A stretch of DNA of 64,000 bases from Eledone cirrhosa. Its lineage: Eukaryota. The DNA lies in NCBI GenBank assembly GCA_964016885.1, contig OZ024747.1:71548001-71612000 (forward strand), given 5' to 3'. The position numbers and the translations under genes are program-made. This document shows positions 2,782 through 49,362 of the stretch, in pieces (the stretch's first letter is position 1; every line of letters begins with the position of its first letter). Under the pieces are notes generated by a model. That model worked only from the letters and a program-made list of their open reading frames with translations. It had not been told where the DNA came from and did not search any database.

Positions 2782-3191
2782 CGATATTAACAAATGGAAA
2801 CCATATTTATAAAACCATATTTATTCCATTATACATATTTCAAGGACACCACGTTAAATTATGGTGTGCCTTCATCAGACAAAATACAATATAGATCAGT
2901 TTTATAAATAAATATTGACATACCCTTAAAAAATGCAACCATTACTGTTGGAAGCTCCCGGATAGACTATTTATTTATAAAACTGATCTATATTGTATTT
3001 TGTCTGATGAAGGCACACCATAATTTAATGTGGTGTCCTTGAAATATGTATAATGGAATAAATATGGTTTTATAAATATGGTTTCCATTTGTTAATATCG
3101 TATGTTTACTCCAAATACTTGTTGAGTGCTTTATATCAGTTATAAAAATATTTGCTTGTTGTATCCCAACAATTTAAATAGAACTTTTGCA
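2782..3191. mobile_element. PLE family A mini-hairpin (inverted pLTR ends 2782-2914 / 2968-3100, tail to 3191)
   Basis: Arms match the termini of the RT/GIY-YIG element at 21151-25790; flanked by (TA)n. Confidence 0.85.
2996..3060 (+). ncRNA. Minimal type I hammerhead ribozyme (mirror copy on minus strand ~2822-2886)
   Basis: TATTTTGT-CTGATGA-AGGCACACCA..TGGTGTCCTT-GAAA-TATGTA-TA-ATGGAATA: both core boxes, stem II, near-palindromic stem III, stem I with G-U pairs. Confidence 0.8.
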
Positions 3192-3552
3192 CATATATAT
3201 ATATATATATATATATATATATATATATATATATATATATATATATATATATATATATATATATATATATATATATATATATATATATATATATATATAT
3301 ATATATATAAATATATATATATATATATATTTCGTTTCTGAATTTGTTTAGCAAGATTCTTTATCTGAAATCGTGTGTTGAAACCGATATTGTTATACTT
3401 TGGGAGGGTCATGTTGCCAATAAGAAACACACGCACTAGTTGCTTTCACTTCAATTTATTATATATTTATAAATTTATAAATTTACAAATCTACAAACTT
3501 ATAAATTTCTGGTTGGTTGGTTGGTTCCACAACCAGATAGTTGTTTATATAT

Positions 3553-3597
3553 AGTCATAGTCCTTTCGTCACACACTCTGTGACCTCTTCAGTGACT
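3553..3597 (-). ncRNA. Minimal hammerhead ribozyme, family B
   Basis: AGTCA-CTGAAGA-G-GTCACA GAGTG TGTGAC-GAAA-GGAC-TA-TGACT on minus strand, sense to the ORF. Confidence 0.8.
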
Positions 3598-3801
3598 GGG
3601 GATTCCTTTCTTTGTTTCTGTGCCTTTCCTTTCTTCTGTCCTACGCCATTTTGTTTCTGTGTGTGTGTTGTGTGCTCAGTTTGCGCATGCGCCACATCCG
3701 GGTGTCTGTGTGTGTTTGTGTTCATTTATCTATTTGTTTATTTATTTATTTATTGTTGGTTGGTTGTTTGTTCTATGTGTGTGTGTGTTTTCATTTTGTC
3801 C

Positions 3802-45811: not shown

Positions 45812-46362
45812 TTACTAATAATAGGAAAATAAAGGAAGGCCTGGACAACCTAAGCCTAGGGGAAAACACGGTAGTGGACAGAGGGGGCCGGAACACAAGT
45901 GGTGATCATTCTGAGAATAGCATCACCAGAAACTGTAACTGTAGAAGGGCTTCAGGCTGCCCCCTGAATGGTTTCTGCCTTATTAGAAACATAGTTTACG
46001 CGTGTGATGTGGTAACTACGGCGTCCACTAAAACCTATATAGGATCAACCTCCACCCCCTTTAAGACCAGGTTTAACTCTCACCAGTGCACTTTTAGACA
46101 TAATAAACTGAGGAACTCCACCTCCTTGGCAGCGTACGTCCACAATTTAAAAAATGCACGAACACATTACACACTTACTTGGCGGCAGGTTGCTAAATCC
46201 CATCCATATACTCCTCATAATAGAGTATGTAACCTATGCCTTGCCGAATCCCACTCTATTATATTTGCTAAATGCCCTCTACTAAACAGAAAGTCAGAAA
46301 TATTTTCCTCTTGCCCCCACCGAATATTAAGCTCTTTCTTCTACTTTAAACCTATTAGCTAG
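45812..46362 (+). pseudogene. PLE GIY-YIG endonuclease C-terminal remnant
   Basis: CNCRR..CPLNGFCL..NIVY..YIGST..FKTRFNSH..CNLCLAE..LLNRKSEIFSSCPHR; homologous to 22610-23040. Confidence 0.9.
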
Positions 46363-48418
46363 CACTTCCTTAATTCTCCAGTTGGGCTATCTTGTGTAAC
46401 TGTCTCTTATTGTGTGTAACTGTCTCCTATTGTTTGTCTTCTATGTATATGAGTCAGTGAGTGTATACGTATGCCTGCGGGAGAATATTGATCTGGATAT
46501 TGCGGTGTACAGGTGAGTGGGTGTGTATGTTAATAGGCACCCCTGTTTGGCACAGCGGATGTAACCCATCCACGCTCGCCTACCCACCATTGGTGCATTG
46601 GTGGGTCTATCCTGACGTATATCTTGTGGATCTGTACCTCTGTATGCGCATGAGTTATGATGTAATGTATCTATGTAGAGCGTGTACTGTGATATAGGCT
46701 GCACAAATAGAAATTTAGCCTGTAACTGTGGGCGGACCTGTGCCATCTCGCCGTAAGCAGTAGATACGTGGCACATGTACGTGTTGCCCTCCTATTCTGT
46801 GGTTTAAGATCTACAGGCTGACTTCTGGGAGCTCTTGCCCGGGGTTGTAGTCTTTCTAGCACGATTGGCCTTCCATATATTGACGGTCGTTGTTATTGTC
46901 CCGAAAGTAACGTTTTGGCCCCGATAGCCCTCCGTAGTTACTAACGGTCTGTGTACACTTGAATCGGGCAATGGCACGTGCGGACACGATTATCTCCGTA
47001 GGAATTCAATTTGATTTATTTTACTGCATCTCCTCGTATGTATTTATTTTGAATGTATTATCCGTGGTGGTGGGTCTTGTCTAATGTGGTATTTCTGTGT
47101 TTAATATCAGCTTTGACCCGGGTGTCCTACGCTGTGTGTGTGTGCGTGTGTGTCTGTGTATACATTTATATGTGTATGGGTGTAGGTGGTTGTATATGTC
47201 TGTATATAAAAATATATATATATGTATACCGTCTCTGCATATGCATGTGGTGTGTATATATGCATATACGTGCTGAACATATTGGTGTGTATAATCTTGA
47301 GATGTCCCAATGCGGTGACTTCATGATATTGGCTCTTGAAGCTATTTTTTATATATCTTTTATTTTTCATATATCTTTTGTATGCGCTGTTGAGTATGCA
47401 TATTAACCCGCCTGACCCAACTGTGTCTGCTTGCTTTCGGCTAGCCCGCCTGCACCTGCTTGCTTTCGGCCCACCTGTCTGCCTCTTGCTGCTGCACGTG
47501 AATTCTCCTACCTTCCTTCGATGTACCTCTGTTGACCATTGGACTCCTGCCCGGGTGTGAACCGGTTTGTGATTACCCCACCGCTCAACTGTGTGAATGC
47601 ACACCCGTGACTTTCGAGTGAACTTTTGAGACTGCCCAACCTGGGACGTCTCCATTGCATTGCAATGGTCAAGTGATACTGATAACTGTGACACTTAATG
47701 CCTTCGTGGGCCCCTGATATATTCAAGAAATATATTCTAAAAAAATATATATCTTATCTCAATTTACTTTATTTTATTTTATTTTATTTTATTTTATTTC
47801 ATTTAATTTTATTTAATTTTATTTATTTAATTTTATTTAATTTTATTTATTTAATTATATCTTATATTATATTATTTTATTTTAGTTTATTTTATTTTAT
47901 TTTAGTTTATTTTATTTTATTTTATTTTATCTTATTTTATTATTATATTATATTATATTCTATTTTATATAATTTTAATTTTAATTTTATATTATTTTAT
48001 TCTATTTTATTTCATTCCTTACCCTGTATCACTATTATCTGTATATTTTATATTTTATATGTATGTTTTTTTATATTTTCTTATATATATTATAAGTCTA
48101 TTTTTTACCTATTTTTCACCTATTTTTTATATCTACTCTTACCTAATCCTATCTATCTTATCTATCCTTGTCTGTTCTCTTATCCATGTGTATGCTTGTA
48201 TGTAACTATATGTTGACAGCACCCCGCCCAACTGTGACTGATAGCACCCCTTATTTTTCAATTATTTTTCATTGTTTATTTTTCAATGTTTATTTTTATT
48301 TTTATTTTTATTTTTATTTTTACTTCCTCAATATCTTCTATCTTTTATTATTTTTCATTCTTTATTTCTTCAATGTCTTGGATTTGTTATTGCTTGTGTG
48401 GTATGTAATTAACCTTTA

Positions 48419-48464
48419 TGCTCTGATGAGTCCCACTTATAGTGCGGATGAAACAATGTTAGCA
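48419..48464 (+). ncRNA. Minimal hammerhead ribozyme, family D
   Basis: TGCT-CTGATGA-GTCCCACT TAT AGTGCGGAT-GAAA-CAATG-TT-AGCA. Confidence 0.8.
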
Positions 48465-49362
48465 AGTAAAGATATGCATATGCTATATGCGTTCTTTGTT
48501 ATTGATTACATCACGGCTCTGTCCTCAGACATCGAGCTAACCTTATACTGCCTGTTGGATAAGTGGCGTATTATACACCCCTGATCCTCTCCCTAGTATA
48601 CATATATTATATATACATATATCTATACACATATATATATACATATATATATATACATATATATATATACATATAATTATGTATATATATATGTATATAT
48701 ATATATATATTATATATACATATATCTATACACATATATATATACATTATATATATATATATATATATATATATATATATATATATATCATATATCTATA
48801 CATATATATATGTGTGTGTGAGTGTATATATATATATATATATATATATATATATATATGCGCATGTGTTTTTCTATGTCTACACATATGTACATTGTAC
48901 ATTTCGACTTTCGGAGTATTTATAGGAACGGTATTTTATTATGCAAAAGAAAAAGTAAAAATGAAAGCCAGCTTCAATATGAAATAACTTTCGTTATGAG
49001 ACATGAATAAACGATTGAAAGATCTTGGTTATTGAATTGAGCACAGCTTTTCTATATGCTGCCTCTGTGTGTGTGTGTGTGTGTGTGTGTGTGTGTGTGT
49101 GTGTGTGTGTGTGTGTGTGTGTGTGTGTACGTCAGTGTGTCGGCCTCTGTGTGTGTGTCGGCTTGTGTGTGTGTCGGAGAATCAGTGGTGTGACGAATAA
49201 GACTTATTAGACATATTACAATCGTTTCTCTGCTCTGTAAGAGCGTCGAGTGCTCGAAGGGCATATACCGTTTACGGACGCTTTAAGCATCCCACACCAA
49301 TTATATATATATATATATATATATATATATATATATATATATATATATATATATATATATAT

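Follow-up and report, generated by a model that had tools for sequence, protein, structure and literature searches.

Twin bulged hairpins in the 5' untranslated region of Hydra-clade Penelope-like elements lie next to the ends of inserted copies

The locus and its elements

A 64-kb stretch of Eledone cirrhosa DNA (assembly GCA_964016885.1, contig OZ024747.1, positions 71,548,001 to 71,612,000), hereafter the window, to which all positions below refer, contains several families of Penelope-like elements (PLEs), designated here by letters. They are present as open reading frames (ORFs) for a reverse transcriptase (RT) with a GIY-YIG endonuclease, as pseudo-long terminal repeats (pLTRs) and as inverted insertions (Table 1), in a genome of 3.0 Gb that is rich in (TA)n. 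An earlier note on the window had pointed out ten-nucleotide motifs (10-mers) near the 3' ends of PLE tails and taken them for a conserved cis signal. Such a signal exists, but its unit is not the linear 10-mer: the motif forms the 3' arm of a hairpin with a bulge, RCUC-[inner stem-loop]-UN-GAGY(RCU), which covaries across families.

A covarying bulged hairpin

Checked one by one, all eleven 10-mers proved real, on the strands and at the coordinates given for them. They represent six families rather than eleven independent cases, since 3121, 13956, 28227, 32541 and 32958 belong to family A, and 20067 and 20424 to family B. Their supposed spacing of 40-70 bp from the 3' terminus holds for nine of the eleven, which lie 41-67 nt before a (TA)5 array, but not for 13956, where an internal TA run begins after 18 nt, or for 20067, with no array within 120 nt. 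The positional enrichment proposed as a test is clear in a 644-kb sample (58 stretches of 10 kb picked regardless of the motif, plus the window): GAGTRCT has a TA array 25-75 nt downstream in 57 of 152 occurrences, against 0-10 of 55-184 for each of 14 control heptamers, and in 41 of the 152 there is ACTC upstream as well (controls 0-2).

At all sites GAGT pairs with an upstream ACTC, which in two altered copies reads ACGC or TCTC; the inner stem between the arms has 2-7 bp, and at the window sites the bulge opens with T. Two hairpins with a different 3' trinucleotide, at 26488-26571 and 48516-48540, had been overlooked. A covariance model run over the window with E up to 1 returns 11 sites, namely these two and nine of those previously noted, and does not recover 20067 and 49245. 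The trailing RCT is common, being present in 21 of 29 curated representatives, and is not fixed. A second downstream stem using the RCU bases, which by eye fits some families, fails in others and was rejected.

Covariation was measured on 20 of the 29 representatives (13 H1 and 7 H2, the two hairpins described below), which were chosen for short loops, partly picked for pairing, and are related. In this set 94.2% of cells are paired, versus 73.7% in shuffles and 21-57% in slid registers; five of the eight pairs show compensatory changes on both sides, the three central pairs are invariant, and RNAalifold predicts the same fold from the alignment. Because pairing had partly guided the choice of representatives, the test was repeated without an inner-stem requirement on 55 clusters, many from loci fetched by motif patterns and with antisense readings included: at least three inner pairs were found with a 2-nt bulge in 20 of the 55, and with bulges of 0, 1, 3 and 4 nt in 4, 1, 2 and 2. 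T comes first in the bulge in 19 of those 20 clusters, for which no U had been required. Sequence-pattern matches in metagenomes, which look like chance and served as a null only, have at least three pairs in 21 of 119 cases.

The same preferences are seen genome-wide, in counts that are copy-weighted and have a limited number of families behind them. The ACTC/GAGT hairpin has 148,452 pattern matches versus 1,892 for the reversed-pattern control, and the form with a G-C outer pair, GCTC/GAGC, has 23,984 versus 683; the mismatched ACTC/GAGC (A.C) has 2,898 versus 1,174, and hairpins with a first bulge base other than T have 8,619 versus 5,590.

Two hairpins in the 5' UTR

Full-length copies carry two such hairpins, H1 and H2, in the non-coding 5' untranslated region (UTR). 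In full-length copies found through their ORFs, H2 follows H1 after 78 (family B), 92 (I) or 172 nt (J), and a twin-hairpin pattern has 1,274 matches in the genome versus 21 for its control; 26 of the 30 twin-pattern loci fetched continue into a Hydra-clade ORF (A, A2, C, E or R). The third position of the 10-mer varies like a synonymous codon, as it would if the 10-mer were simply the beginning of an ORF and encoded V-E-C or I-E-Y. H1, however, lies 130-215 nt upstream of the homologous ATG in all six full-length copies, which excludes a coding role, and in family B translation of the open frame across the 10-mer gives V-L-S-T; the coding explanation was rejected and has virtually no probability left.

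Insertion ends

We mapped 306 ends abutting (TA)n to reference copies, 260 of them in families with both hairpins located. Ninety of the 260 fall at -14..-3 of H1, 145 at -14..-3 of H2 and 25 elsewhere, so that 235 lie near a hairpin; the junction interval is mostly -9..-3 and usually includes the element's own TA. Ends just 5' of H1 are tail-less and those just 5' of H2 are tailed, keeping H1 only; the 'tail' is therefore the H1-H2 interval. The 40-70 nt of the earlier note correspond to the H1-H2 spacing less the hairpin, because the second hairpin lies just past the terminus and is present in full-length copies only. Tailed ends are over-represented among the 260, as H1 plus TA was the pattern that brought in many of the loci; H2 being missing from such copies, their distance to H2 is unselected. 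An unbiased sample gave 46 single ends at H2, 29 at H1 and 20 others.

One-sided tails have already been described for PLEs (PMC8557442, PMC3846280). Among 74 inverted Hydra-clade insertions, in which 'tailed' for families D and F means at least 45 nt past H1, 55 pair a tail-less with a tailed end, two are H1/H1, one is H2/H2 and 16 have an unclassified end. Mixed pairs thus make up 55 of the 58 that can be classified, against at most 50% expected from independent starts (P ~1e-13), or 67% given one tailed end (P ~4e-9). A TA array inside the insertion is absent in 52 of the 55.

A core-promoter or translation-control element of the pLTR or 5' UTR would be expected about where the hairpins lie, H2 being only some 35-55 nt before the ATG, and the promoter of Penelope is reported to reside in the pLTR (PMC8557442). 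Such a function leaves unexplained both the fixed short distance of the two end classes to their respective hairpins, in seven families, and the existence of an upstream pairing partner whose distance varies, and we regard it as highly improbable.

Table 1. Hairpins and element parts in the window, by position.
Feature	Position	Strand	Remarks
Hammerhead-like core (CTGATGA...GAAA), family A	3004..3044	+	5' of its hairpin; putative ribozyme
H1 hairpin, family A (ACTC CAA atac TTG tt GAGT gct)	3108..3130	+	tailed arm of a short inverted insertion; opposite arm with tail-less end near 2780
Family G, non-Hydra PLE	3329..5316	-	negative control; termini ~58 nt apart, without the hairpin motif
H1 hairpin, family A variant	13942..13965	+	
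H1 hairpin, family B	20050..20076	+	decayed (ACGC for ACTC)
H1 hairpin, family B	20407..20433	+	tailed end near 20478, tail-less inverted end near 20279
H1 hairpin, family F	20913..20935	-	1-nt U bulge; inner pair G-C reversed
Hydra-clade RT/GIY-YIG ORF	22640..24393	-	5'-truncated, interrupted
H1 hairpin, family K	26488..26571	+	long loop; no ORF linked here
H1 hairpin, family A variant	28227..28248	-	2-bp inner stem
Hammerhead-like core, family C	29756..29792	+	5' of the family C hairpin
H1 hairpin, family C	29866..29907	+	7-bp inner stem
H1 hairpin, family A	32541..32563	-	left arm of the sole inverted insertion with two tailed ends
H1 hairpin, family A	32945..32967	+	right arm of the same two-tailed insertion
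H1 hairpin, family E	44949..44976	-	tailed end near 44893, tail-less end near 45321
Family I Hydra-clade ORF, C-terminal part	45802..46362	+	CxCX5C linker and GIY-YIG; short inverted copy on left
Hammerhead-like core, family I	48423..48453	+	
H1 hairpin, family I	48516..48540	+	outer stem GCTC/GAGC, compensatory to ACTC/GAGT
H1 hairpin, family D	49227..49254	+	6-bp inner stem; outer A to T at the inversion junction; no ORF linked here

Carriers and a control family

The elements that carry the hairpin are Hydra-clade PLEs by diagnostic sequence features rather than by an RT tree. The tails of families A, B, C and I are continuous with preceding RT/GIY-YIG ORFs and family F flanks one as an inverted end; no ORF link was made for families D and K. 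The clade is defined by RW[KR], DK[TS] and CxCX5C (PMC8557442, section 11). RWR or RWK occurs in the N-terminal region of A, A2, B, C, I, J and R and is absent in family G; DKT or DKS replaces DKG in A, A2, B, C, E, I and J; and the CxCX5C linker precedes a C-terminal GIY-YIG domain in B, C, I and the window ORF at 22813, the exceptions being the copy read for J, in which S replaces the third cysteine, and the copy linked to F, which is without the linker. Insertion into (TA)n, another mark of the clade, is seen as well. In 120 homologues of the family B protein, RW[KR] is found in 113, DK[TS] in 117 and CxCX5C in 111, and R37 is present in all 116 that could be aligned at that position. Six PLE fragments matched no Pfam family. 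A structure model of the Hydra-clade protein (pLDDT 93) has TERT as its top Foldseek match, and this predicted fold only confirms a TERT-like kinship. The tails described in the earlier note as unrelated come from families that share kinship within the Hydra clade, and as a signal of PLE tails the hairpin was found in that clade only, the non-Hydra family of the window being without it.

In its stretch at 3802-5316 that family, G, lacks RW[KR], DK[TS] and CxCX5C. It has two sharp termini about 58 nt apart (window 3329-3390 on the minus strand, and loci L149-L178); across its 30 loci none of the 14 covariance-model hits lies in its tail, and no copy was found in which a 5' pLTR continues into the ORF. 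Some other signal may take the role of the hairpin there.

Some further arrangements of these elements deserve mention. The 3' UTR of the ORF at 22640..24393 runs into a family A pLTR with a hammerhead-like core (21203-21244) and a tail-less end near 21151. Full-length family B units of 784 aa also occur in head-to-tail arrays, repeating about every 3.5 kb (L275, L276). In the family D copy (49185-49232), the element's own upstream sequence, inverted, is fused straight to the hairpin, the first base of which is altered. Outside the PLEs, L1/Tx1-like LINEs (endonuclease, RT, zf-RVT) lie on the minus strand at 7858-11319, 12358-13218 and 61921-63782, one of them with an open frame of 1153 aa.

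Hammerhead-like cores upstream of the hairpins

The core pattern of a putative hammerhead ribozyme is present in the pLTRs of families A, C, E and I, and hairpins lie 88-203 nt 3' of it; a regular-expression search found none in B, D, F and J, including within 450 nt of the hairpins of B, D (49245) and F (20913). The motif had been said to lie downstream of the hammerhead on the same strand wherever one is present. This describes 3121, 13956, 29898, 32958, 32541 and 44949, each with an upstream core, but not 28227, where the core is on the inverted arm only. Among the best 150 of 250 Rfam matches there was no hammerhead, and all of those 150 were below the gathering score; most are microRNA (miRNA) look-alikes of TA repeats and palindromes, the only non-miRNA match over a motif site having an E of 0.97. 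The junctions of inverted PLE copies at 45739-45870 and 13650-13880 are perfect palindromes and give the top, spurious, miRNA matches.

The hairpins could also be seen as RNA-processing or stability signals, which aid hammerhead folding or mark a cleavage 5' of the stems, copying then proceeding from the resulting RNA 3' ends. Their position downstream of the core, where one is found, and the sharp placement of the ends would suit such a role, as would the coincidence of RNA-seq read ends with start sites reported for PAc, a Poseidon element of the green anole (PMC11167929). Hammerhead stems I-III, however, close upstream without the motif and the spacing varies, and the PAc enzyme is reported to start internally on uncut RNA, with ribozyme mutants leaving the product unchanged (PMC11167929); we find this explanation very unlikely.

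We also rejected the hairpin as helix III of a hammerhead, which calls for GAA before the stem, H after it and CUGANGA upstream, as an AU-rich spacer precedes the stem and G/A follows. In three published Hydra-clade hammerheads (PMC8557442, supplement), which are a separate upstream element, helix III has the letters actc/gagt of the H1 outer stem; the likeness may reflect either chance or a shared origin of hairpin and ribozyme. The family B pLTR (20020-20400, L275) has GAAAC and flanking helices without a canonical CUGANGA core, family J has CCGAAGA with a long stem II, and family D may have a core too, its stem II being very long; going by their sequences, these may be variant hammerheads.

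Hairpins in other hosts

Three Hydra-clade contigs (L466, L467 and L468) were recovered from public assemblies, where they are filed in bacterial metagenome-assembled genomes; as they are Hydra-clade PLEs, they probably represent contaminating host DNA. In L468, H1 has an outer stem of GCAC/GTGC and lies 65 nt from H2, and the 3' copy runs into (TA)n about 4-7 nt short of H2; in L467 the two hairpins are 68 nt apart, with one inner mismatch in H1; the L466 contig stops at the hammerhead. A genome search for the GCAC/GTGC variant was uninformative, the matches listed being mostly family A hammerhead stem II, and no relative was found in the viral contigs searched. By eye, the published consensus of Hydra-1_Ajap (sea cucumber) has two hairpins before the ATG, and Hydra-2_Amil (coral; GCTC TACACT taaa AGTGTA tt GAGC act) and Hydra-2_Ajap have one each near the 3' end.

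Initiation of reverse transcription: a proposed mechanism

Since most inserted copies stop a few bases short of one of the two hairpins, these likely set the start of copying. Each of the two probably binds the element's RT in the 5' UTR of its RNA, so that copying would begin at a UA some 3-9 nt 5' of the stem. The enzyme would nick (TA)n and the TA 3' end would pair with the UA upstream of the hairpin; a start at H2 would copy H1 and so produce a tail, while a start at H1 would produce none. Of the three functions that the earlier note had envisaged, RT binding fits the data best, and core promoter and processing site fit less well.

A DNA-level explanation has to be weighed against RT binding. 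The GIY-YIG endonuclease could read the hairpin or its sequence in DNA and cut at a TA a few bases 5', resolving an intermediate or an existing pLTR, in which case the ends are cuts and not starts. Craig et al. attribute the tail to endonuclease resolution (PMC8557442), the D. virilis endonuclease is reported to have needed the tail for recognition and cleavage (PMC11167929), the ends coincide with TA, which is the preferred target, and folding is equally good on the antisense and the sense strand. Recognition of double-stranded DNA, however, needs no covarying stem of variable length, G-U pairs occur in the sense reading at five of 22 second inner positions, and both boundaries of the PAc tail are reported to have been mapped in vitro as RT start sites (PMC11167929). 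We consider the endonuclease an unlikely source of the pattern.

Several observations weigh against RT binding as proposed here. Binding and initiation at the hairpins are what we infer from sequence. Folding energies are weak (-0.4 to -7.4 kcal/mol for 12 short hairpins), the outer stem formed in just 19 of the 29 representatives when folded with their flanks, and in all 13 window cases the antisense strand folds no worse than the sense strand, so that energy cannot single out RNA over cDNA or single-stranded DNA. The invariance of the three central pairs means that these may be read as sequence. Half of the six published Hydra-clade consensuses are without a clear hairpin by eye (Crog partial, Amil-1 weak, Obim-1 none), and family G, which is motif-free, shows the same one-tail asymmetry in 11 of 11 classifiable pairs. 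Pairs in the unbiased sample are few (6 mixed, 1 H1/H1, 1 H2/H2, 8 unclassified). Lastly, recognition of tail DNA by the endonuclease has been reported for Penelope, and the PAc start sites are reported to be non-homologous to the cut DNA, in contrast to the UA microhomology here (PMC11167929).

The near-exclusive mixed pairs suggest that a single event employs the two hairpins of the same RNA. It is quite possible, if short of probable, that a protein dimer would use one on either strand of the break, which would make the insertion head-to-head and leave a tail at only one of its ends. In HIV TAR, U23 forms a triple with A27-U38, and arginines contact G26 and G28 (PMC6189040). A TAR-type rule (a pyrimidine bulged after a Watson-Crick pair, two pairs before an A-U) describes 29 of 29 curated hairpins, a U having been required in their choice, and 19 of 20 clusters without that requirement; it fails in H1 of L468, where GCAC/GUGC keeps the helix and loses the U.A-U triple, and the bulge of family F is only 1 nt. 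Given these two departures the TAR-like step is a lead only. The combined picture of a telomerase-related RT dimer gripping two TAR-like hairpins and making one cDNA from each (TA)n break end, a two-hairpin, two-primer integration, is offered tentatively, and we are more doubtful still that the bulged U makes a triple that an arginine recognises, for which the near-invariant R-x-R-W motif would be the candidate.

PLEs are the closest retroelement relatives of telomerase, and their RNA recognition and the cause of their one-sided tailed inverted ends lacked a mechanism; the only in vitro PLE study reports two start sites, not the signal (PMC11167929). A twin covarying hairpin that keeps a fixed distance to both ends, and is shared by several animal groups, is a direct target for mutagenesis and structure determination, and it supplies a boundary-calling rule for the roughly 170,000 pattern matches in this genome. 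If the two-primer mechanism is true, it alone would yield both the head-to-head inverted structure and the one-sided tail, and a portable 25-nt hairpin would set the start on any RNA, with possible use in RT-based insertion tools.

Comparison with known systems

The earlier note did not recognise the motif as described, and our literature searches likewise yielded no published description of the hairpin or of twin PLE-end signals in the texts covered (including PMC4209133, PMC7229834, PMC3846280, PMC13282606 and PMC8557442), most subscription papers lying outside that coverage. We judge the hairpin to be a real, clade-wide RNA structural signal; RT-positioning RNA elements as such are already known. 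With the Hydra clade as published the present elements share RW[KR], DK[TS], the CxCX5C linker, a C-terminal GIY-YIG, (TA)n targets, a tail at one end and, in families A, C, E and I, a hammerhead-like core in the pLTR; as far as the available text of PMC8557442 goes, that description includes no tail hairpin or motif, credits the tail to endonuclease resolution, and gives it 30-40 nt, versus about 65-170 nt here.

The closest experimental parallel is PAc, in which reverse transcription is reported to start internally at two sites bounding the tail, to require RNA 3' of the start, and to extend both cut target strands, with a dimer predicted (PMC11167929); the same features make up our reading of the Hydra-clade hairpins. 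PAc differs in belonging to another clade and in starting within the ORF, in an AC-rich stem loop, and that report identifies no binding motif.

With the arginine sandwich motif of HIV TAR and 7SK (PMC6189040) the hairpin shares a purine-U bulge-G-A-G against C-U-C-pyrimidine, the first bulge base being U and the second variable; it differs in having the loop on the other side of the bulge, and the triple and arginine contact are only candidates here. The likeness to TAR is one of resemblance, with no shared ancestry implied. The RT-recognition stem-loops of LINE and R2 elements, and the template-positioning elements of telomerase RNA, are likewise small RNA structures that the RT binds and that fix the start of copying. 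The Hydra-clade hairpin differs from these in lying 3' of the first copied base, in being itself uncopied, and in being present twice.

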